A stretch of 64,000 nt of DNA, from NCBI GenBank assembly GCA_958009085.1, contig OY253684.1:682001-746000 (forward strand). The letters run 5' to 3'. Of the stretch, positions 12,992 through 56,244 are shown one piece after another (position 1 is the first letter of the stretch; the number at the start of each line of letters is the position of its first letter). A program made the translations under genes and the position numbers. The stretch is from Protoeuglena noctilucae. Taxonomy: Eukaryota. The notes beneath the pieces were generated by a model. The model had not been told where the DNA came from, searched no databases, and saw only the letters and a list, made by a program, of their open reading frames with translations.

Positions 12992-15900
12992 ATGAGGGTA
13001 AGGGCTCTGCTCCTTACGGCGGCCGCGGCCCTGCTGCTGGGGGCTTTGGGACCCGTTTCCGCCGTGTCGCGGAGCCTGGACCAGGTCGCGACCGGATACA
13101 CGCGCTTGAAGACGTTCACGTACACGGACCCGCTGTTCAGGTGAGCCCAGACGCCCGCAGCGCAACGCCCTGGGGCCGACATGACGACGGGCATTCAGGG
13201 GCCCGCGTTGCGCGACGCCGGCTCTTCGGGCAATGCGGCTCGTTGTCGCGATTCGTTTCTTTGTATTGTATGTCTGCGCCGGCGCGCACGACCCCTGGGA
13301 TCCGGGTTGCGCCGGAGAAGCTGGCCTGCCAGAGTTTGGCGAATGCGGCCCCCCCGGGACCCCGCGACGGCCCGTAGATGCTGCACCGCTTTCATCGCGC
13401 TAGTTACGGCCGTGGCACGGACCCGCCGGGTTTCCGGGACGCGGGGGGGGGCGCAGCGAACCTCCTGCACTTTTTGCCACCGCTGCGCTCGCTCGCCCGC
13501 TCCCCGCCCTCGCTTAATGGTTCCCTTGGCCCCTGTGCAGTGATGACTACTCCTGCTACACGACGACGCTGCCCAGCGGGCGCACCAAGTACGTCCCACG
13601 CGGGGTGCCCAAGACATGTGGGCTCGGATGCCAATACGCCAAGAGCGTGTCGACGAACGACACCCAGGCAACAAGCATGGACGCCATGACGGGGCCGCCG
13701 GACTTCTGGCCCCAGTCCGGTGACAGGTGAGCGCGGCGCATGTGCCGCAGGGGTCGACACCGTCGGGGCTCCCACCCGCCGCCAAGCTTCTCCAATGAGC
13801 CAAGTGGTCCCACAGCGTCTTCTCTCCTCTCCGCCTCGCCCAGCCCCAAGGCGTTCAAGCCCTCCAGCTCCAACCAGGCCCCGGCCGGCGCGAGCTACCT
13901 GACGGTGGATGTGACCGTCAACTCCAAGATCTACGTGAGCAAGGTCCGCGTCTACGAGACGGATCATCCCGGGGCCATCGTCAAGATCAGCGGCTTCACG
14001 GACTCGACGTCTGGCCTGGAGTACGTGCTGTGGGAAGCCCCCAAGGGAACCAACGGCAAGTACACCGTCTACATCCCCGCGGGGTCCTCGCAGGCGAGTT
14101 CCGATGACGATGAGTGATACGAGTAGAAAAGGGGTGCTGTGCCATAGTTTGCTGGGAGGCCGCTCGTCAAGGCCGGTGGCCGATGCTTCAAGGCGCGGAG
14201 GCTCGTGAGCCGCGGCCCTGGACGGCGTTTGGAAATGCGTGGTCGCGTGCCCCGCCCCCGCAGTACGACCCTGTCAAGAACGTGCTGACGACGGCGTCGC
14301 GCATCTTCGAGCCCCCGGTCAAGGCCCCGAGGGACGTGCAGCTGTCCATCATCCGCCTGTACATGGACGTGGCGCAGGTCGACGGCACCAACGCCCTGGA
14401 CGCAATCGAGGTCTGGGGCGATGACGCCACCGGCGTCCCTGTCGAGGACTACGGCACCGTGTGCGCCAACGAGGCCGCCATCAACTGCTGGCATGCCTGC
14501 CGCACCGGCGACCTCGTCACGACCGCGCGGGCGTCGGCGGCCGAGACGGTGCTGTCCGACGCGGCCCAGTGGCTCATGACGGCCCTCACGGTTCCCACGG
14601 CCGGGTCGTCCCCGCTGACGGTGGCGCTCGACCCCGCCAACCAGGGCGACCTCCCCTGCGACGACGTCCCGCTGCCGCCCTACTTCCAGAACCCGGGGCT
14701 GTACGCCGCGGGGCTCCTGGTGGTCCCGACCCTGCGCCCCGACCGCGTCCCGGTCAAGGCCTACCCCTGCCGGCCCACCAACCGCGCGCTGGTCGCCGGC
14801 TCGCGCCCCACCGCCATCCGGGTCAACATCGTGCCGGGCTTCGCGGAGGCGGCGCTCAAACAGGACGCGGCGGAGCGCGGCACGCGGCTGCGGCGCGCGG
14901 CGGCCGATGCCGTGCTGCACGAGATGTACAAGGCCCTCGGGTGGGGCTGGGACTCGACGTCCGTGACGGCCCGCAACGCGGCGCTCAAGAAGCACCTCGG
15001 CGCAGACATGATCTCGTACCAGTCCACCACAACGTGTACGTCGTTCGTCGACTGCGCCAGCGACTTTGCCAACCGCTACCTGATCAAGAACACGGCCCCG
15101 GCCATCCTGTCCCAGGCCCGCACGCACTTCGCGAGCTCCTCGATGCTGTTCGTGGAGATGGAGACCAACTACGGCGACGGCCTCTACGCCGTCGGGGCCG
15201 ACCCCGACTGCATGACGGACCAGGCCCAGGCCACCTTCAACTTCCTGCCGTCGGTGAGTGTCAGAACTGAGCTTAAGCCCCAGGGCCTCCCGCCGCAACC
15301 CCTTGGCAAGACGCAAGCGACCGCTCATGTGACCCTTCGCCCCCGCAGAAGTGCAACCCGGGTCTCCTCCTGGAGCACCGCATCTTCCTCGGGGAGCTCA
15401 TGACGACCGCCATGTACTCCAAGCTCGCCTACTTCGACACGGTCGCGGCGTCGTGGGTTTTCCAGACGGGGCCGGAGGTCAAGGGCTCGACCCGCACGGG
15501 CATCTCCCTGGCCATGTTCGACGACTTGGGCTACTTCAAGCCCGACTACAGCGCTTCCGAGCTCCTCACGTACGGACACGGCATGGGCGACGCCTTCGGT
15601 GAGAGCCGCCCCACCGACCCTTGTCCACATGTGTCACGCCCGACCCTTGCATCTGCCTCTACGTCCGCCCAGCAAATATCCACCATGGCGCTCTCCTTCC
15701 CTCCCGCAGTGAGCCAGTCGTGCGTGGACTGGCCCACGGCCGCGCAGAGGTACCTCTGTCCCATCCAGGGCCAGGGCTTCACGGGCAACGACAACATTGC
15801 GTGCTCGCCCCAGCGCACCCACAAGGGCCGGTGCCTGCTCACCAACTGGACCAATCCGCCCACGCCATACCGGTACGGCTCCAACACCCTCGGCCTGTCG

Positions 15901-18900
15901 GCCGCCCTCGACTACTGCCCCGTGGTCGCACCGGGCGGCTACGTGAGGACGAGCGGCAACGCGCCCACGGCCGACCCTACCAAGGTCGGTGGCCAGACGG
16001 TGGCCTCTAACGCCTGGACGGCCTGCAACGTCCCGCGCCAGGAGCCCACACCCGCGTCCAGCAACACCCTGAACGAGGAGACGGGGCCCCCGTCCCGCTG
16101 CTTCAGCGTCACGCAGACGGGGTCAGGTGAGGCCACTGCCCGAGCGGTGCCAGAACAGCTGGGGGGATTGAGGGTTGCATTCTTTGAGGCAGATTGTCGT
16201 GATGATAGCGGGTTGCGAGAATGACGTGCACTAGCATGGGAGATGAGAGTCAGTTGGTACCAACACCGACCCTTCACGCGCCTCCCTTGGTCGCAGCGAG
16301 CGCGGGGTGCTACAAGATGCACTGCGACGGCAACACGCTGTACATCAAGATGCTCGGGACTTGGAAGGCTTGCGTGGCCACGAACGTGTACTTCGAGAGC
16401 ACACCACCCGGGTCGGGCGTCACAGTCACGTGCCCCACGGCCAGCGAGGTCTGCAGTACGTTCCAGCAGCTCACGGGGCCCTTCGTGGAGGTGTACGGCC
16501 TGCCCGACCCGCAGACGACATCGACGGCCGTGAGCTCGCCCACCAACCTCATCCTCATCCAGGCCTCGACCGTCAAGGTCACGGTCGAGACGGGCACGTT
16601 CCGCGTGGGCGTGGACGGCAACGTGCTGCAGGTGCTCGTGGGCGGCGGGATCATCGCGACCTTTTCGGACCCCTGGCCCAACAACACGGACGGCTCCATC
16701 GCCCTGAGCTACGCCTACACGGTCAAGGGCCTGCCGGCCACGCCGTCGACGGGCTCGACGCTCGTCTTCCAGCTCGTCGACAAGTACGGCGCCGTGCAGA
16801 GCGCCCAGACCTTCTACGTGTACGTGCAGCACACGGGGATCACCCAGGGCGTGACGCAGACCGTCACGGGGTCGTCGCAGTACACCCCGTTCGACCCCAA
16901 CAACAACCTCAACCCCGCCAAGCGCCCCTTCACGGGCGTGGCCGAGACCAACTACCCCACGACCATCACGCCCAGCGTCATGGGCGACTCAACGGACGCC
17001 TGGGCCCCGCAGTCGGCGGGCGGCCGCACGCTCGACGGCGTGCCCCTGTCGTGGCTGACGAACCAGTGGATCTACGAGGAGTACCTGGACGTCAAGGTCA
17101 CGCACGCGGTCATCCCGACGCAGGTCACCGTCTACGAGAACCTGGCGCCGGGGAGCCTCGTGCGGGTGCAGAGCGCCGTGACGACCAACAGCGTCACCAC
17201 GTACGTGCCCGCCTGGGAGCGCCTGCGCCCGGCGCGCTCGTCCATGACGACCCCGGCGATCGGGGCCAACGTGCAGAAGACCGTGTACCAGCTGCGCACG
17301 GTGGGCGACAACACGCCCGAGCTGTCCGACACCTTCCGCCTCTCGTGGGGCCTGAAGCGCACCTCCTGGCCCGAGGTGGCCTCCATCGGCATCACGGGCG
17401 ACGCCGCCGAGATGCCCCACGTGGCCGACGACCCCAGGGGCCTCCCCGCGGAGGCTATCGTGGGCTTGCCGGACAAGGCCACCGCGACGGTGCAGTTCAC
17501 GCTCGACACGACCGCCACCCTTGTGTGGTCCACCCCCACGTACCTGCGCCTCATCGACGAGAACTGCGCCCCCACGGGCGGCTCCTCGTGCGTCGACTCG
17601 GCGCTGGACCTCCAGTGGGGCCGCGTCATCAACCAGTCCGGGGTCGCGTTCGGGCCCGGCACCGTGTCAGTCGGGGTGGCCATCGACACGTCCCTCATGT
17701 CCCGCGCCGACGCCCGGCGGTGGATGGCCGGCGGGGCAGAGGGCTACGTGGTCCTGTACAACGCCCTCTTCCCCACCAACGCCCAGCCCACGGGGTGGCC
17801 GGTCGCGCGGCCCGTCGTGGCCACGCGCCGCGTCACGGACGGCATCACCCTCCGCGGCCCCGCCTGCGCCCACGGCGTCGTCTACCGCACCGGGCCCCTC
17901 GACTCCGGGGAGTGCCAGTGCTTCCCGGGTGCGTACGGCCCTGCCTGCGAGTTCCTCTCGTGCCCCGCCGGCTGCGCCAAGGACGGCGTCCCCGCGGGCG
18001 TGTGCGACCACTCGACCGGCACGTGCCTGTGCCTGGACGGCCACTACGGCGTCGACTGCTCGGGCGTCGTGGGCACGTGCGTGCTGTCGTACGACGGCAG
18101 CTGCCCGGCGGGCTACAAGGAGGGCACGTACACGATCAACGCGGAGGACGACAACAACCTCAACCGCGCGATCGGCACGGTCCCCGAGTCGATGCAGTGC
18201 GGGAGCAGCAGCTCCAAGACCAACGCCTTCGACTGCACGGCCCTGATCGACATGGACCTCTGCTGCAGGCCCAGCGCCAACGCGGGGTGCCCCTTCGCGT
18301 CCGGGTCCGACCCCTGCACGAGCTCCTCCTGCCCCTCGAGCTCCTCGCCCACGCCCACGTCCCAGCTGCAGTCGGTGCTGCAGTCGGACTCCACCGGCGG
18401 CTGGCGGGCCCCCAAGTGCCTCGCGGTGGTGCAGCACTACTGCTTCTACCACCCGGAGGACGCAGCCTGCCACGCCTTCGCGCCCATCCCGATCCCGGCC
18501 GACTTCGCCTGCCCCACCAACCTCGCCGCCAGGTTCTGCGCCGCCAACCGCGACGACCCCGACTGCGCCGCCTTCGTCGCCTGGCGCACCTGCGGGTTCG
18601 CCCCGGCCTCCGGCATCTGCCAGGGGTCCGCCTGCAAGGACTCCACGGGCAACTACGACTTCACCAGCCAGGCCTGCCGCGCGGCCGTTATGACCTACTG
18701 CGCCAGCGCCACCGACCCCGCGTGCAACCTCCAGGGGTTCGGGAGCGGGTGCCTGTTCGCGGCCGGGTCGCCGCCCTGCGAGGCGGTGGCCTGCCAGATG
18801 GAGTACTACCAGGTCGGGCCGTGCAAGGCGGTCGTGGACAGCTACTGCGGGTCGGCGGCCGGGCCCAACGACCCCCAGTGCCTCGTGCTGGGCTACGGGG

Positions 18901-19481
18901 GCCTCACGGCCAATGAGGCGCCCTATGCGATGCCGCTGCCGCAGAGCACGTGCCCCCTGGCGCTCGCGCAGAAGCAGTGCAACCTGATGCCGCTCGACGC
19001 GACGTGCGTCATGCTGGCGCAGTACGGCCTCATCGCGGCCGCGGCGCCCCTCCCGGCCCTGCAGCCGCCGTCCGCGCTGCAGAGCGCCGCGAGCGCCGAC
19101 ACGCGGCCGGCGCTGCAGCTGCTCAAGTCCGCCGCCCTGGCCGCCGATGTGCTCCGGCAGCAGGACGTGTCGAGGCAAGCCATGTACCGCGAGCTCTTCG
19201 ACTTCGCGGACGGGGATGCCGACGGTCTCCTGGTCGCCGAGGAGGTCGCCCTGGCCCTCAACGTCATTAAGTCGTGGCGGCTGTCGGGCAACGCGATCCC
19301 CGCGAGCCGGGGCTTCCTGTCGGCCATCGACGACGCGACGCTGGCGACCGGCCTGGCCCTCAGCACGGACCCCTCGGCCAGCAGCGGCAACCACTTTACG
19401 CGGAGCGACTTCTACACTGCCATGGAGACGCTTTACCTCAACTGGGTGGACGCCCACGGCGCTCCGAACCTCTGGGGCTGA
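12992..19481 (+). CDS. Secreted ~1,808-aa mosaic protein: signal peptide, scarf/discoidin-like domain, leishmanolysin (peptidase M8)-like domain with degenerate Zn site, second scarf-like domain, EGF-like, Apextrin-C-like, Cys-rich repeats, EF-hand
   Basis: Exons 12992-13140, 13541-13726, 13844-14093, 14264-15253, 15349-15598, 15710-16126, 16297-19481 join in frame (5,427 nt). Signal-like MRVRALLLTAAAALLLGALG; M8 motifs VLHEMYKALGW, EHRIFLGELMT, ISLAMFDDLGYFKPDYS...YGHGMGDAFVSQSC, ALDYCP, GPPSRCF, GCYKMHC. Confidence 0.85.
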
Positions 19482-30078: not shown

Positions 30079-33000
30079 CTACAAGTCCATCGTCACCACT
30101 ACGCACTCCTTGCTCACACACGCAGCGTCTGCCACCATCATCTTGCCCCTCAGCTCTCTAGCCAGCGCGCTGCCGTCACTGCTCCCGTCCGCCGCCCCCA
30201 GCTCCCGCAGTGCTTGAGTGGGAAGCCTCACCACGACGGCAGCAGCGGCATTGACCGTGGAACGAGCGGACCAGCACAGGGTGTCGTCCGCGGTGAGTTC
30301 TAGTGACAAAAGGCTCGTCACTAATAGGGTCATTGGGATCTTGCACAGCAGAGCAGGGGGCGTCGCATGCATATCCCAGGCACAAAGGTCGGCGCTTCCG
30401 GTAAAAATGTTGCTGAAAATTACGGAAACCAGAATGCCGCCGTCGCAGGTAATGGCCAACCATATGGGAACATGACTCAGCATTGTCGGTACGATTGCAG
30501 AGCGCGTGCTCCCGACCTCAAAGGTGCACAGGTTATACTTTGTGGCACTCTCCGCAGAGTCCTCATCGGGTTCCCCAACTGCCACCGCCACCGCCACCAC
30601 CCCCCACGCGCAGTCCCGAGACGTTGCTGACTTTGCTGCCTCCCACGCCCTCCCATCGGCATCGACACACCTTGTCGGCAGCACGCGCCTGGCCTGCCCA
30701 GCGACGTCCTCTTGCACCAAACTACCCTCCTCCCACACCCACAAGCGCTCCCCGTCAGGGCTCAAGAAGTCCACAGCCTCCCGCACTATCTTTGCCTGCT
30801 CGCCCGAGGATGGGCTCCAGGCATACAAGACGCCGCGGCTGAGCAAGTACAGCTTGTCCTCCCCAGCAAAGCAAAGATGCCAACCGTGCCATCTGTCTGC
30901 CCCTGGCACCTCGGTATCAGCCAGCATCTCCCCCGTTGCCATGTCCCACACTAGCGCCCAGCCGCGGTCGCGCATCAAAAAACCAGCAGCGCCCCTCTTG
31001 CGGTCAGGCGAGATTGCCATTCCCAGGACCCGTACACCCACATCCACCTTACAGATGCGCACCCCCGTCCTCGCATCCACAATGCGTGCAGTGCTTTCGT
31101 TTTCCGCTTGCACCACGAGCACGCCTCCATCGGGCGAAAGACTAGCTACATACACTTCTCGCATAGCATCAATGTCATCCCCGCCGACTATGACTGGCGA
31201 GTCCCCTTGCTGAGCCGACATATCCAACAGCCAGGTCGCAGTACCGGTCGTAACCCCTAATGTCTTACCAGTGGGGTCTACCTGTATGTCACGCAGTATA
31301 GCTTTGATCTGGAACACAGCCCAGGGGCACTCTGTGACTGCATCACGAAGGCTCAGCTCTAGTCCACCTGAGATAAGCTTCGACGTAACAATGAACGCTC
31401 CATCAGGGCTGGAATACAACCCGTGGTCTTTTGCTGATTGCCGCAGCTCTCGCCACGACTCCCTGTTGTGAAAGACCCCGCCTTCGATTTGTGTGACGAT
31501 GGTCGCCCCGTCAGGGCTGACCAGCGAGTGGCTGCCCTCCAGAAGCCCACGCTGCTTGCCCACCTTTGCGTCCCACACGAGCATCCCCCCACTGACAACC
31601 GCCATAATCCCATCGCCATCCGAGATGATCTCTCTGCTGGACGAGGTGGATGTCCCTTCCAGCTCCGCCCGCAGCTGCCCCGACTGCACGTCAAACACCC
31701 TCAAGTTGCTGTTTCTCGGCTTCATCGCCACCCACGCGCCGTCTCCACCCACCATGCCCAGCTCAATCTCCAACGCTGCCACCTCGGCGAGCGGCCCCGC
31801 AGGCACTGCCAGCTCCTCCCCACTGGGCACGCCCCACTGGCGGTAACCCCGCTCCGTGACCGCTCCCACCGTCGTCCCCCCGTTCATGAGCCCCGCATCG
31901 TGCACGTTGACAAAGACCTTGGCACCCTTGCCAGGCAGCGGCAGCAAACTGCCCGCCATGCAGTCCACAAGGTACAGCCCTTTGTTTCCCCAGACTGCCA
32001 GCGTGGCTCCGCTGGGGCTGAACTGCATGCCCCTTGCCTCAAACCCGTCGTCCGGCAGTCCGACGACCAGGGTCCTCGCCCCCGTCACGGTGTCCCAGAG
32101 ACTGACTGCTTGCTTATCCACCACCCCCAGCACGTCGCCCTCGGGCGAGAAGGCCATGGCATCTACGGGTCCAGAGGCCAGTACCTGCGCCTCCGGGAAC
32201 CCGTCCATGGTCCCCACCACCCGCACCCGGCCGTCCACGAGCCCCTCGCGCGCGCACGCGTCCCCTGCAGCATGCATCCAGGTACCCTGCGGCGCCACCA
32301 GCGCCGCATCCACGGCCACGCTGGGGTTGCTGACGAGGACAGCCGAGAAGCATCTGCGAGCGAGTCGAGATGTCGACAGGATGCAGTCAACCCCATACAG
32401 AGCAGACATCAACGAAGCTAGACAAACACGTCGCCCCCGTTTCCCTTACCTCAGCCACGCCCTCGTCTCCTGCGCGGAAGCAGCCTTGGGGTGTGACGAC
32501 GCCCTCAGCGCCTGCGCCGCCCTCGCCACGTCCCTCACCAGCCGCCCCACCTCCCCCGCCTCCGCGCACGCCCGCACGTACCCCAGGCTCGTGCACACGC
32601 CCGCAGCCACGCCCAGCTCCCCAGCCTCCACCGCGTGGTGCAGCGTGTACACGCTGGCGTACGCCCCCAGCGTCTCCACCACCGCCCCGCTCCCGCCGCC
32701 CTGCCCCAGCGCCTCCACCTTGCGCCCCCACACCACCGCGTGCAGCGCGTGGCCCACCCGCACGTCCACGTGCCACCCCGACGCCTTGTCCTCCGCCAGC
32801 CAGTCCATCACCGACCTGCATGGCGTGTGAGAGCGCACGTCAGGCTCACCGGTACGCTCCACCCGCCCCCAGCCCCACCACTTTCCCCATCGCCAGCCCC
32901 GCCGCGCCTCTGCCGCCACTCACTTGTGGAAGGGCCGTACGCGCCCGTCCGCGCCCACAGGGAACAGGCTGCCCATGGCCCCCAGCACGCGCGCGGCTGC

Positions 33001-36000
33001 CCCCGCGTCCTCGTCGCCGTGCTGGACCAGCTCCTGCAGCTCCGACAGGCTCAGCGGCTCCACCGCCGCCACCAGCGCCGGCAGCACCCGCGTCCGCACC
33101 ACCTCCACGTCCCGCTCCGCCAGCGCCCTGAACTGCCTGCAAATGCAACCGGACGCTGACATGCGCCACCCCTGTGCAAGCCAACAGTCCACGTGCCATG
33201 CAGACCTTGCGATCCACGCCCCCAACATCTGTGCACCGCCACATGACCACCCGCCCATCCCCACCTGTCGAAGTACTCCTTGTACAGCGCCCGGTGCCCC
33301 TCCGGCAGATCCCCCACCGCCATGCTCGCCACCCCGCCCTCCGCCCTCGCCCCCACCTCCCGCTGCACCATGCCCACCAGCGCCGCCACATATGCGAACA
33401 CCCCCCCGCTCTTCCCCTCCAGCGCCTCCACCACCGCGCCCCTCTCGTCCTCGCTCAGCCCCTCGCTCCTCAGGCTCCCCCGGATGTACGCCCGGATGTC
33501 CTCCCGGTTGCGCCCCTCGCTCGGCTCCAGCGTGAAGGGCTGGAACCGCGCCACCTGCCGCACGATGTACTCCTCCGGCCGCGACGTCACCAGCACCCGC
33601 ACCCACCCCGGAAGCTCCCCCACGCACCCCGACAGCATCTGTAGCACCCCGTTGCTCCGCGCATCCGCCCCTGCCTCGTCCACCGCGTCGATCACCAGCA
33701 CCACCGGCGCCTTGGCCCAAGCCACGCCCTTCGACGGGCCCACCACCAGGCTGCGGGGGCGCGGTTGACGAGAAGGCTGTTACACATGCACACTCGCATG
33801 GACACATGTTCATGCATGCCACAAAATGCGCATCCCACTCACCTCCGGAACCAGTCCATCGCCGTGCCGTTCAGGTCCAGCTCCCGCAGCCCCTCCTCCA
33901 CCGCCGTCGCCGCCTCCGGCACTGCCTCCGCCAGCTGGTACGCCAGCGACTGCGCCATCACCCTCGCGTCCGTCCTCGACTCGTCCCCCGCCCGGCAGAA
34001 GTGTCCCCCCAGCAGCCGCCCGGCCTTGTGCAGCTCCAGCGCCACGTGCGCGGTGAACGCCGTCTTGCCCATGCCTGCGGACGACCGGGGAGGGGTGCGT
34101 GGCAGTGAAACGGGCCTTCACCGCATCCCTCCACTCCATGTCAGCCCTCGCGCTCGCCAGTCGCTGTCACTCGCCTGGCAGGGACAGCAGCAGGAACATG
34201 TTGCTGGAGCGCTGCGCCTCGCTCCGCGTCGTCGCCTTCCCGTCCACCCACACCATGACCTCCTCGGCCAGCCACCCGCGCGTCCCCACCTGCGAGCCAT
34301 AGACAATGGACCTGCTTCACCCCCGACCCCATGACGTGATCACATGCGCCCCCGTGCTCGCTCACCATAAACCCCGCCTCCCGCAAGTCCGCGTCGTGCA
34401 GGAAGTCGTGGTGCTTCAGCACCCCGGCCAGCCTCTCCAGCGACCCTCCCGCCGGCTCTCCCTTCTCCCCCCTCTCCCTGCCTTGCGTCACGGCTGCCGC
34501 CAGGTTCCTGGCGCTCGCACGCTTGCCCGCCCCGCCCCGCGCCTCGCTCCTGCCCTTGCCCGCGCCGTTCACGTGCACGTACCACAGCACGTCCCGGAAC
34601 CGCACGCTGCCCCACTCCAGCTTGCCCCTGCGCTTGGCCCCCTGCGCCAGCTGGTACAGGTTGTGCGCCTGCACCCTGTCCGCCGGCGCCAGCAGCCGGT
34701 GCAGGTCCGTCCGCACGAACTCCGCCAGCTCCGGCGGCGCCAGCGTCTCCTCGTACCACCGCGCGGCCTCCTCCAGGATCGGCAGCTCCTCGTTCAGCAG
34801 CGCGATCTCAAACAACCCCCACTCCATCTCCGCCGCCACGTGCGCGAACCCCTCGTCCTCGTCCACCCACAGCCGCCGCAGCTCCCCCGGCAGCTTCTTC
34901 ACCTCCTGCGGCTCCGCGTCCAGCACCTGCCCGATCTTCCGCTCCAGCGCCTCCAAGCCCCTGTCTACGCGCTCCCCCAGCGCCGCCACCTGCTCCCCCA
35001 CGTTCTGCACCAGCCCCGCCAGCACCTGCTCCCCCGGCGCCAGCAGCCCAAACACCGCCTCCACCCTGCCCCGGTCCCCCAGCACCGCCCGCAGCTGCGC
35101 CGGTGACGCGTCCTCCAGCCGCTCCGCGCCGGCCTCCTGGGCCAGCCTCTCTGCCAGAGCCCTGCTCGAGAGCAGGCTGCCGTCCTCCACCGCCGACCGG
35201 ATCTCCTGCACCCCGCGCAAGGTCTCCACCTGCATGGCCGCCGTCAGCACCCCCACCTGCCCCAGCACCTTGCCCGCCAGCTCCTGCAGCCCGTCCGTGT
35301 CGCCCCGCGCCTGCAGGAACCGCCCCAGCCACGTCCGCGTCTCCACCTGCTGCACCAGCCCCGCCGCCTCCTCCAGCAGCCCTGCACGCGGCAGCGACAT
35401 GGCGGATTTGTAAGCTACGCTGCACGCGCCCCTCCCTCGCACGAAGCCATCTCACTCCGCCGCCGCTCTCTCCGCACCCTTCAGCTCCTCCAACGCCCGC
35501 GTGTGCTCGCTCAGCACCTCGTGCGCGCCCACCACCACCTCCATCACCCCCGCCACCACGCGCTTGAAGTCCCCCACCGCTGCCCTCACCGACACGGCCT
35601 GGGAGGCGACGGCAGGCGCGCTCGTTTGCGACGTCAGCCGGCTCGCGGCACGTGCTCCGCGCAGCCACCATCGCCCTCACCTCGGCGATGCCGGCCATGA
35701 CCCTGGACGCCACTTCCGCCAAGGGCCCCACCATGGGCGCCCTCGCCAGCACCTCCATCGCCTGCATGCCGCCCCTGGCCAGGATCCGCAGCACCTCCCC
35801 GGTCACGCTGTTCGTCTGCGGCGTCGCGCATCGAAAGCACGATAGCTCCCAAAGCATGATCGCTCACAAAGCGCTCGCGAGGCGACGCGCAGTCGGCGCC
35901 CGCGGCCGCAGCGATCACCTGCAGCAGCGTCACGATCTCCGGGGCCAGCGGCGCCACAGTGTCCCACAGCTTCTGCGCACACAAAGCAAAAGAACTCGCC

Positions 36001-52900: not shown

Positions 52901-55900
52901 AACCACGAGACGCAGGTGCTGGAGATCTACGTCCGCGACGTGCCCATCTCGGGCCGCACGCTCCTCGGGACGGTCCGCCTGCCCCTGTCGTCCCTCCCGC
53001 CCGACCGCACCGTGTCTGTGTGGCTGCCCATCGCCCCCGCGCCCATCGCCGCGCCCGAAGCCACCGCGAGCCGTCGCGTGGGCCGCGAGCGCTCCGCGGG
53101 CGAGCTCCGGCTCGAGCTCACGTACACGCCCTTCACCGAGGACGATGCGGATTTGGGATACCGCGAGGCGGAGCGGCTGGCCCAGCTCGTGCGCGAGCAG
53201 ATCGGGGAAATCACCGACGTCAAGAGCGCGGCCTACGCGAGCTCCCGGGCGGCGGTGGCCACCAGCGCTGCGGTGAGCGATGCGCGACTGCCACGGCTGG
53301 CGTCCGCCACCGCCTCGCTCAGAGGAGGGCGTGCCTGCGAGCGATGTGTTGTCGAACATCGCTGGCGTGTTCGCGCTCGCAGGTCAGCGCCCTGGCGGCG
53401 ACGAAGGCCAAAGCGGCGCGGGCAGCGGCGAGGGCGCTGCTGAGCTCCCGCAAAGCCCAGGCTGCAGCCGCGGAGATTCGGATGCCCCGCGCGCCGCCGT
53501 CCCCGTCCGCGCCCGGCGCTCTCCCGGCCGAGATAGAGCGCATGGCCGAGTCGTATCAGAACTTCCTGCAGAGCATCTCGGAGGACCCCGACAGGGCTGG
53601 GCCTGGCATGCGGGAGGAGCTGGCCATGTACGGCGACGGGCAGGGCTGGGGCATGGCGGGGCTGGGAGAGGAGCCTCCTTCCGAGGTGACGCGCAGCGCG
53701 CGAAGTGATGCGGCGCGTTCCGCTGCTCTGGCGGGCGTAGCATGTGCACGTGCGGGGCTGAGACGACGGGCATTGCTTTGCTTGCCCCTTGGCTCGGGCT
53801 CATGATGTGGTTTGCTTATGACACGTCGTTTGCCGCGTCCCGTCCGCAGGCGGACCTTCTCCGGCGGTCGCAGCGCGGTGGTCGCAGGGCCGTCATTCCC
53901 CCATGGGTGCGCCGCCCCGGTCCGGGCGAGCTGAGCGCGTTTGGCGTCTCGGACGTCCTCCCGACGGTTCGCGTCCGACAAAACACGGACGCCTCGGACG
54001 AGGAGATCGACTCGGTGCTGCGGGACGAGATCGGAGGGGCGGCATCCTCGTCAGACCGGGCACTGCCTGAGTCGGGGCGCGACGCGTCAGAACCCACGGC
54101 AGGGGCGGGGGCTGGGGCGGGGTCGGGGTCGGGGTCAGAGGCAACGGGGGACGCGGAGGAGGCGTCCTCGAGCAGCGGCGCGAGGTGGGAGCATTCGCGG
54201 GGTGCAGCTGAGGATGCACGTCTGCCGGTGCACGCGGGGGGCACATGGGCGGGTGCGGAGCAGGGGAATGGGAACGGGGCCAAGCACGCGGGGTCGCATG
54301 GAATGAGCCACGGGGGGGTCTACGGGGCAGCGCACGGGCGGGGGCGGTCGTTAGCGGAGCGCATGGGTATGGGGCGGGGTGGGCCGGCTGGGGTGTCTGT
54401 GGGGCCTCGGATGACGGCGAGCGGCGACGAGTTTGCGGGCTGGGATGGCATGGCGGGGTCGCATCCGGGGCGGCCGGGGCCCGGGGAGCGAGAGGGAGAG
54501 GGAGAGGGAGAGGAGGCGTTGGTGGTGGCGGGGGCGTCGGGACGGACGGCGGCGGAGGGTGGGGTGGCGAGGGAGGTCTCGCGGGGTCGGGGGGCGGGGC
54601 ACGGGCGGCCTGGAGGGGGTTCATCGAGCGGCGGAGGGGACAGGGGCGCAGGGCAAGCCGAGCCGGGTGACGCGGATTCACTGGCGTTACGGGAGGAAGT
54701 GGTGGCCTCCTGGATGGCACCCGGGCCTGGCGAGCAGGGGGTGCCGAAAGAGGGCGGGAGTGACGACAAGGGCAGCGGGGGCGATGAGGAGGGTGGTTGG
54801 GCTCGGGACGACGGGCGGGCGTTTTGGGGTGTGGAGGAAGTGGGGCCTGAAGGGCTGTCTAAGAAAGTGGGGCAGAGTCCGGGGCAGCTGGAGATCACGC
54901 TGGGGAAGGAACCGGGCGGGGAGTCTCGTGTGGCAGAGGCGGCAGAGGGGCGGGGAGGGAAGGAGGGCGGGGAGGGCAAGCGCGGGGGCGGGGGGTGGCT
55001 GGGGTGGGTGGGGGCGGTGGGGAGCTGGGCGGGGGGGCTGTTCCGGCGGGGGAAGCGGGAGCGGGAGGAGGGTGGCGAGGGCGAGGGGTCTGGCAGTGAT
55101 GGGGAGGCGTCTGCGGTGGCGGGGGCGTCTGGCAAGGACGGGCGGCCCTCGCGGGGGCGGCCGGTGTCACCGGACCGGGGCCGGGGCAAGGGCGGGGACG
55201 GCGCGGCGAGCCGGGAGAAGGGCGCGGCGCCGGAGGGGGCCAGCACGGGTGGGTGGCTGCGGGGCGGGCGGTACTTGGGCGCGGCGGCTGTGCGCCTCAC
55301 GCAGCGCACTGCAACGCAGTCTGTTGTTTGTCTGTTGTCTCAGGGGTTCCTTAGGACCCCGCAGTGTCGCTGCGCATCGTGTGTAACCCCTGCGCGACAC
55401 GTCTGAGTGGTTGCAATGTGTGCTCTGCGCGTGCAGGGGCAGAGGGGCCAAGGCAGGAGGAGGAGGGTGGTCCTCTGACGCGTGTGCCCGTGCCTGACGT
55501 AAACCCGGAGGAGATTCTGCGGCAGGTCTGGCGCGTGATGACGCTCAAGGACGTGAGGGTCGAGTCGATGTGGCGGAGGTACCTGCAAGAGAGCGAGGTG
55601 AGGGAGCAGAGGCGGAAGCAAGTGGCGGTGGCATGCGCTGGGAGTGATGAGGGACAGGCACCTGCAAGAGAGCGAGGTGAGGGCAGCGTCACACGCGGGT
55701 GGTCATTCAGTGTCGGTATAACGACAGGCAGCGTCCGGTGTAGGCGGTGAGGGACCTGCAGGCTTCGATCTCACCCTTAAGCGCTTTGTGACGGCGGCCC
55801 GTGGCCCTCGGTTCGCAGAAGCCCTGGCTCCAGCTCCTGGCCTTCCTCATGGCCGTCATGATCGTGCTCCTCTGTGTCGTCGCGTACCGTTTGAAGGAGG

Positions 55901-56244
55901 CAGAGGACTTCGGGCTGATCGACTCGGAGGCGGGGCGTGGGACCATGGACCTGCTAAGAGAGACGGCGGAGAGGGAGGTGAGAGGGAGGTGGTGGGGTGC
56001 ATGTTGTGAGCTGGTGGCTGGCGGAGGGTGGGGAGGGTGGTGGGGTGCATGCTGTGCCTGTGGTTTCATTCGCATCTACCCCTGCTTGCACCGACAGAAG
56101 CTGGAGAAGGAGATGAGGAGGACCAAGGTCTCGACTACGCCAACCCGCGCGATGGGGCCTGGCCGCGACAGGGCAGGCGCGACGGAGGGTCAAGAGGCGC
56201 GGGGCCCCGAGGGCGTCCCGCCGGCGCCAAATTTGCGTGTCTGA
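49967..56244 (+). CDS. SMP + C2 domain membrane-contact-site protein, NTMC2T5 (tricalbin/synaptotagmin-like)
   Basis: ETVEWVNMSWRKLWRVYQRGLEKWL...RRTSRK...RYTGGARML...DLDVEGKLWIKIRL...LLTVDLPSLMVLPK; C2 FKGELSV...NPYCRL...WNQDFEFLV; TM segments near 51170-51225 and 55820-55885; 5' end uncertain. Confidence 0.85.
55581..55683 (+). repeat. 24-bp direct repeat containing a donor-like site
   Basis: ACCTGCAAGAGAGCGAGGTGAGGG at 55581-55604 and 55660-55683. Confidence 0.85.

Follow-up and report, generated by a model that had tools for sequence, protein, structure and literature searches.

Does a green alga carry an ApeC domain, a module that the available text of PMC8361754 reports only from invertebrates and bacteria? 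The question arises from a 64,000-nucleotide stretch of the Protoeuglena noctilucae genome (assembly GCA_958009085.1, contig OY253684.1, positions 682,001–746,000 of the forward strand; hereafter the window, numbered from its first letter). A preliminary description of this DNA, made from the letters alone, had recognised an ApeC-like module in an algal secreted protein and read it as a single lobe, suggesting microbial-glycan recognition and a wider or horizontally spread distribution of the domain. Judging by profile comparisons, the module very probably shares ancestry with a single ApeC repeat, the middle lobe being its nearest counterpart. The algal stretch falls short of the ApeC domain as defined, having one lobe and not three. 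What is new is a solitary ApeC repeat in Viridiplantae, set within an architecture that had gone unannotated.

Positions 18072–18270 of the forward strand translate to GTCVLSYDGSCPAGYKEGTYTINAEDDNNLNRAIGTVPESMQCGSSSSKTNAFDCTALIDMDLCCR, followed by a proline codon, exactly as quoted in the preliminary description, whose module boundaries were off by no more than a few residues. The positions of the lobe itself and of its loop are as follows.

18078–18266, forward strand: ApeC-type lobe; a full repeat unit that runs from the first cysteine to the CC doublet and holds six cysteines (hhalign, Pfam, AlphaFold2)
18138–18164, forward strand: acidic/amide loop NAEDDNNLN, counterpart of the ApeC DXED..NxN motif (read from the sequence)

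The module shares 56% identity over a 94-residue piece with a second protein (P0004), in which nearly all motif residues are retained, and it recurs, conserved, in about 20 further proteins. A profile built from the window's module and a close relative (A2), searched with HMMER against 1.84 billion representatives, retrieved 38 proteins at E ≤ 1e-3, and 36 of these were scanned with Pfam once the two query proteins had been set aside. Ten carried Peptidase_M8 and matched over the whole module, seven were EGF-only fragments of the same kind, and three had no family. Nine had a Pfam ApeC match (eight above the 26.5-bit gathering cut-off; library E-values 1.7e-8 to 2.1e-4). The eight bacterial-type ApeC-matching proteins (P0019, P0023, P0025–P0028, P0032 and P0037), whose bacterial origin we infer from lipoprotein-like leaders and the literature, were all matched in three repeats by query positions ~9–49, a few stretches scoring only 7–11 bits; the middle repeat was top-scoring in six of the eight. 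Pfam recognises two entire ApeC domains (235 bits) in P0024, a full-length ApeC protein, and here the best match fell in both middle lobes.

Because the scores of single repeats were modest, we ran profile–profile tests with hhalign. A profile of 16 algal modules (A3) matched an alignment of the eight ApeC-like proteins (A4) with 88.4% probability (E 2.8e-6), and 24 separate ApeC-like repeat units with 95.3% (E 2.2e-8; 52 columns, query 10–70 against template 3–54 of 54), the latter alignment covering exactly one whole repeat unit. The match to P0024 reached 75.5% (E 2.4e-5), with 34% identity over 38 columns, starting at the first cysteine and including the CP. In a control, none of 200 column shuffles (mean 11.9, standard deviation 2.6, maximum 19.7) attained the real score of 43.3, and a reversed query profile scored 8.8; since shuffled and reversed profiles score far lower, it is the order of the residues that makes the module resemble ApeC repeats. 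The profile similarity that the preliminary description presupposed is thus present, at 88–95% against bacterial-type repeats and at 75.5% against P0024. A pattern of the kind it gave, C-x7-CPxG[FY]xxG...xED..NxN...P...CCR, fits the middle lobe of P0024, and its count of a single lobe holds, with one significant stretch per family protein and a match that spans one whole repeat unit.

Word-index homologue searches found only the protein itself and one relative, ESM Atlas gave no usable match for residues 612–705, and a PDB sequence search with the EGF-plus-lobe region returned EGF-type matches only (teneurin, mastigoneme proteins), with nothing for the lobe. The bacterial-type protein P0027, compared alone with genome contigs, found no relative there. 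The module profile also weakly matched P0030 and P0034, long, phage-tail-fibre-like repeat proteins built from many GDLWIDTDDxNxLYRWxG-like units; this match is probably convergent, because only a D-T-D-D-x-N-like motif is held in common.

In the available text of PMC8361754 and PMC9585378, the ApeC domain is defined by about 200 amino acids, cysteines conserved at eight positions and the DXED motif in three copies; the same sources report distant bacterial ApeC-like domains with fewer cysteines, and genuine ApeC-containing proteins (ACP3, ACP5 and BgACP1) that also deviate from DXED. Set beside this definition, each protein of the algal family has a single significant stretch, flanked by EGF repeats and unrelated cysteine repeats. 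The lobe has six cysteines, of which C9 and C17 align with the first cysteine and the CP cysteine of the P0024 middle lobe, and its CC doublet resembles, by eye, the YCCR of P0024; the cysteines of the other ApeC lobes are missing because those lobes are missing. The DXED motif keeps its E-D, with N for the first D. ApeC (PF16977) is the top Pfam family for the module at a score below the cut-off, 15.4 bits for 66 residues (E 0.017) and 14.5 bits for 94 (E 0.031), and the match spans profile positions 81–121 of 208. The Pfam search that had been proposed as a check therefore names ApeC as the best family and leaves the module below the family threshold. "ApeC-like" stands for one ApeC-type lobe, on Pfam and hhalign alike, and has to be given up for the full domain.

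Conservation of the loop was surveyed in 28 family sequences. N-x-E-D-x-x-N-x-N occurs in 17 and N-x-A-D in two; a DSGxP[ND]SVN-type sequence replaces the loop in six, which form a Chloropicon-type clade, and the remaining three are divergent or unmatched by the pattern. In the alignments, NAEDDNNLN lies opposite DTEDDxNxD in the bacterial-type repeats and DDEDDNNMN in P0024. In five relatives (P0012, P0018, P0021, P0022 and P0029) the protein models stop or turn nonsense-like right after the lobe's G-x-L-P, which suggests that in other lineages an intron interrupts the lobe there; the gene in the window is intron-free at this position.

AlphaFold2 placed strands at residues 5–11, 22–29 and 64–76 of the lone 94-residue module, in the same order as in the model of each repeat of P0027. 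This three-repeat protein was predicted with a mean predicted local distance difference test (pLDDT) score of 78 (~90 in the domain) and a predicted template modelling (pTM) score of 0.75. No PDB match was found for the lone-module model, nor any Foldseek match for the P0027 model. When three copies of the algal lobe were modelled together, without a family alignment, the prediction scored 0.02, which speaks neither for nor against a trimer.

The module lies in a large, multi-domain gene, whose features are given below.

12992–19481, forward strand: whole gene, seven exons; product, an 1808-residue secreted leishmanolysin-like protein
~12992–13138, 13539–13724, 13842–14093, 14264–15253, 15349–15597, 15709–16125 and 16296–19481 (stop included), forward strand: exons
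14264–16500, forward strand: leishmanolysin (Peptidase_M8)-like region, interrupted by introns (Pfam, PDB 1lml)
14918–14932, forward strand: degenerate zinc-binding motif HEMYK replacing HExxH (translation DAVLHEMYKALGWGW)
17886–18065, forward strand: two EGF-like repeats immediately 5′ of the lobe (Pfam, alignments to teneurin EGF repeats in the PDB)
18288–18335, forward strand: conserved cysteine tail CPF...PC...C after the lobe (16-sequence family alignment)
18336–19040, forward strand: five tandem cysteine repeats, C-x6-7-[YF]C-x5-8-D-P-x-C (read from the translation)
19185–19262, forward strand: EF-hand-like loop DGDADGLLVAEE near the C-terminus (translation YRELFDFADGDADGLLVAEEVALALN)

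The exon structure follows from P0042, an 1808-residue protein in the same 90%-identity cluster as the window's protein, which maps letter for letter onto seven window pieces (coding part of the last piece, 16296–19478; exon edges accurate to 1–3 bases). The gaps between exons start with GTGAG in five of six cases and with GCGAG at the mapped edge (14094) in the other, and all end in AG. RNA contigs from two marine metatranscriptome runs span the joins 15252/15348, 15597/15709 and 16123/16294, corresponding to three GT..AG introns, and match window positions 16294–18400 with zero differences once the introns are spliced out; the unspliced form of the gene is present in a DNA-type run. Because these intron-joined contigs run through the module region, the ApeC-like module is part of a spliced, mature mRNA. 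It is found within a 1090-codon open frame (16209–19481), that is, in the last of the seven exons, and the upstream frames 14114–15403 and 15277–16224 are parts of the same gene. Database gene models fragment the gene: P0003 (1086 residues) holds the last exon only, and P0041 (406 residues) extends into the following intron, whereas P0042, in the same cluster, is the transcript-based 1808-residue product.

From its N-terminus, the protein consists of a signal-like segment, an unassigned N-terminal region, the M8-like region, about 440 residues without family assignment, two EGF-like repeats, the lobe, the CPF..PC..C tail, five cysteine repeats and an EF-hand-like tail. The N-terminus of P0042, MRVRALLLTAAAALLLGALGPVSA, is by eye a hydrophobic signal-like peptide, in keeping with the preliminary description of the protein as secreted; no transmembrane stretch was seen, again by eye and with no predictor. 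Pfam Peptidase_M8 (PF01457) matches P0042 above its cut-off of 21 (70.9 bits, E 1.2e-19) and matches the open reading frame 15277–16224 at E 1.7e-11, and a profile of the algal family aligns with leishmanolysin (PDB 1lml) at E 5.4e-30 over profile positions 247–740.

The zinc ligands of M8 peptidases are HExxH plus a third histidine. The HEMYK site aligns with THEMAHALGF of 1lml, with a family consensus of h-e-l-y-r. The second zinc histidine is K or R across the family, and the third (GSH in 1lml) lies opposite a leucine in the window's protein, which on this alignment lacks two of the three ligands. HExxH occurs in none of the 12 family proteins scanned, and HE at the aligned site is kept only in P0042 and P0007. 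The protein is probably a pseudo-protease and not a metalloprotease; since zinc ligands are missing, it probably has no metalloprotease activity. With the degenerate zinc site shared across the family, these green-algal proteins as a group look like pseudo-leishmanolysins.

The region just upstream of the lobe (17841–18071) passes the Pfam cut-offs for EGF_2 (31.1 bits, E 2.9e-07, cut-off 22.1) and EGF_laminin (27.7 bits, E 3.1e-06, cut-off 21). The EGF part also matches the tubular mastigoneme proteins OCM3/OCM5 (PDB 9ufe), at E 0.015 as a single sequence (window 17850–18420) and E 2.5e-08 as a family profile (A5), a match that probably reflects shared EGF-type repeats only. In the tail after the lobe, C79 and P80 are nearly invariant and F81 is present in most of the 16 family sequences; the tail has no counterpart in ApeC repeats. 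The five cysteine repeats, often followed by G[FY]G, have invariant cysteines in nine full-length family members and could be assigned to no Pfam family even at an E-value limit of 10. For the EF-hand-like loop, Pfam EF-hand_6 gives only E 0.18; its fit to the canonical 12-residue loop was judged by eye, and it is partly kept in P0004.

All named family members that bear the module belong to Chlorophyta, in three classes, in agreement with the earlier designation of the protein as algal.

CAG9462343.1: Pedinophyceae sp. YPF-701, Pedinophyceae
KAK3266882.1: Cymbomonas tetramitiformis, Pyramimonadophyceae
WZN62616.1: Chloropicon roscoffensis, Chloropicophyceae
A3770_01p07980: Chloropicon primus, Chloropicophyceae

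The remaining members are marine metagenome or transcriptome records. Nine full-length members share the same domain order, with every cysteine of the EGF, lobe and cysteine-repeat part invariant in the alignment. Precomputed annotation in one homologue search assigned Peptidase_M8 to nine of 13 matches and ApeC to none. Because the M8–EGF–lobe layout is common to three chlorophyte classes, the evidence favours an old module, vertically inherited in green algae, over a recent transfer. The known range of the ApeC repeat unit, as distinct from the full domain, is thereby extended to Viridiplantae, a modest extension. A literature search, which did not cover subscription journals, found no paper linking ApeC with leishmanolysin. 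"ApeC domain" appeared in none of the literature matches listed for ApeC plus algal terms, nor "apextrin" in any listed for apextrin with MABP, beta-prism or perforin-2 terms.

How should a lone repeat in such a protein be understood? We consider it fairly probable that the module is a solitary ApeC-type repeat, stapled by extra disulfides, in a secreted pseudo-protease that acts by binding. The 66 residues would be one complete copy of a ~65-residue repeat that is tripled in bacterial-type and animal ApeC, most like the middle lobe, kept solitary with its six cysteines directly after two EGF repeats in the 1808-residue leishmanolysin-like protein. Since the protease site looks dead, the protein would act by binding and not by cleavage. 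The lobe may fold into a small sheet of three strands, from which the N-x-E-D-D-N-N-x-N loop would project to offer a polar ligand site, possibly one that depends on Ca2+, and the ligand could be a carbohydrate or a cell-surface or matrix partner, by analogy with the peptidoglycan binding of full animal ApeC domains (described in the available text of PMC8361754 and PMC9585378). With one lobe per chain, avidity would need to be supplied by oligomerisation, or else by the adjoining EGF and cysteine-repeat modules. Binding through the acidic/amide loop is a tentative suggestion drawn from that analogy, as is the glycan or peptidoglycan recognition by the lobe that the preliminary description had put forward. 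A further idea, which we rate as rather doubtful, is that the ~65-residue lobe is an old autonomous extracellular module whose un-triplicated state is preserved in green algae, and that three-lobed ApeC is a beta-prism with kinship to perforin-2's MABP/P2 domain, itself a beta-prism that binds acidic lipids according to the available text of PMC6753088. If so, the ApeC lineage would reach Viridiplantae, apextrin (MACPF plus ApeC) and MPEG1 (MACPF plus MABP) would share one ancestral architecture, and the algal lobe would correspond to a single prism face, working by itself or joined with others in an oligomer to restore the prism.

Several observations weigh against the picture of a solitary binding repeat. 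The Pfam ApeC score of the module (14.5–15.4 bits) is under the cut-off, the profile gives no match on the full 1090-residue frame, and two of the 16 family modules match it at E ≤ 1, the best at 0.029. The best single-repeat scores in the profile search are only ~20–23.5 bits, the library-wide significance of the ApeC matches depends on three repeats summed, and seven of the 36 proteins retrieved are unrelated repeat proteins with many weak stretches (E 1e-5 to 1e-3). AlphaFold2 modelled the lone module with no more than middling confidence (pLDDT 67.5, pTM 0.43). As for the loop, the role of DXED is stated to be unknown in the available text of PMC8361754 and PMC9585378, and the first D is N in every algal member that keeps E-D; because of this substitution, and because one clade has lost the acidic motif altogether, any function of the loop would not be universal in the family.

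The loss in that clade also lends weight to the main rival, to which we allow an appreciable if lesser chance: that the lobe descends from an ApeC-type repeat and now only holds the EGF repeats and the cysteine-repeat stalk apart, as a stiff spacer rich in disulfides that binds no ligand itself. The Chloropicon-type clade (six of 28) retains the module and its cysteines although DSGxPNSVN stands where the acidic loop would be; in the alignment of 16 sequences, no column other than cysteine ones is invariant; and six cysteines in 66 residues suit a structural knot. A spacer would not, however, need the loop N-x-E-D-x-x-N-x-N and the later G-x-x-P, and yet 17 of 28 sequences, from lineages far apart, retain them. 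At the other extreme, the stretch could be a true ApeC pattern-recognition domain with bacterial peptidoglycan as its target, like those of amphioxus and molluscs. ApeC being the top Pfam family, the peptidoglycan binding of full domains and the life of marine algae among bacteria all speak for this analogy, but with one lobe of the three, a single significant stretch per family protein by hmmsearch, a score under the Pfam cut-off, and EGF and unrelated cysteine repeats on the flanks, we regard it as improbable.

Both of these alternatives grant common ancestry with ApeC. A convergent or chance motif, in which a Cys/Gly/Asp/Asn-rich stretch shares no ancestry with ApeC, would account for a similarity that is short (32–52 aligned columns) and biased in composition, and for the capture by the module profile of unrelated repeat proteins with D-T-D-D-x-N-like motifs (P0030, P0034 and others). 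We judge it quite improbable: the hhalign score stands ~12 standard deviations above the shuffle mean, with 0/200 shuffles reaching it; the match stays in register over a whole repeat unit and takes in the cysteines as well as the strand on each flank; nine of 36 profile matches from 1.84 billion sequences searched are ApeC-matching proteins; and the reverse Pfam match lands in the same lobe. The horizontal spread raised in the preliminary description is not favoured either. A recent transfer into this alga, with an animal or a bacterium as donor of an ApeC fragment, would fit the cysteine pattern C...CP...CC, which resembles the animal middle lobe, and the reported restriction of ApeC to invertebrates and bacteria. 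The same M8–EGF–lobe–cysteine-repeat layout is nevertheless found in Pedinophyceae, Pyramimonadophyceae, Chloropicophyceae and the window's lineage at 33–56% identity, and the lobe sits inside an intron-bearing nuclear gene whose G+C content is like that of its surroundings, making such a transfer highly improbable.

The mean G+C content of the window is ~67%, and the other genes in it are ordinary eukaryotic nuclear ones, encoding a mitochondrial carrier, a P-type ATPase, an aldose epimerase and a TELO2-like protein. Local GC skew is strong in two places, about −0.30 to −0.32 at 32001–36000 and +0.38 at 54001–56000, and the profile is flat elsewhere; the large frames in these two intervals had no Pfam family in a Pfam scan.

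We compared the algal lobe and its host protein with ApeC proteins of both kinds, green-algal and protozoan M8 proteins, and the MABP beta-prism or P2 domain of perforin-2 (MPEG1; PDB 6sb1, 6u23). Invertebrate ApeC (PF16977; apextrin, amphioxus ACP1/2/3/5, oyster CgACP1) shares with the algal lobe a strand, C-P-x-G-[FYW]-x-x-G, a second strand, an x-E-D-x-x-N-x-N loop, G/P and a final strand ending in C or CC. Both are extracellular and cysteine-rich, and of the three ApeC lobes it is the middle one that the algal lobe most resembles (Pfam positions 81–121; the 38 columns aligned to P0024). Unlike invertebrate ApeC, the algal module has one lobe against three, ~66 residues against ~200, six cysteines within a single lobe, and N-A-E-D in place of D-x-E-D. 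Its host is an M8-like pseudo-protease of a green alga, an architecture and a kingdom that go unmentioned in the available text of PMC8361754 and PMC9585378. The bacterial-type proteins resemble the algal lobe in that it aligns to one of their repeats with the same predicted strand order. They differ in having three repeats of two cysteines each, DTEDD loops and, by eye, lipoprotein-like N-terminal leaders; relative to their repeats, the algal lobe has four extra cysteines and a longer insert before the last strand.

The two Chloropicon proteins and those of YPF-701 and Cymbomonas belong to the same family as the window's protein and share its domain order, including EGF repeats, lobe and cysteine repeats. 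They are 27–37% identical overall to it, and another relative is 52% identical. The Chloropicon clade lacks the acidic loop, unlike the window's protein, and ApeC is annotated in none of these green-algal relatives. Leishmania GP63 (1lml) aligns over the M8 fold region. The window's protein departs from it in having HEMYK for HExxH, a leucine for the third histidine, and a C-terminal extension of ~1000 residues that comprises the EGF repeats, the lobe, the cysteine repeats and the EF-hand-like tail.

These comparisons alter no major concept, and their value is incremental. An expressed, conserved single lobe in green-algal proteins indicates that the repeat unit can exist alone, and the large secreted leishmanolysin-like proteins of marine picoalgae are marked as probable binding pseudo-proteases, which bears on algal surfaces and on contact between alga and bacterium. 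Where the animal and bacterial-type proteins carry the repeat in threes, the algal lobe, at ~7 kDa, is a small and tractable fragment for asking what the DXED..NxN loop does.

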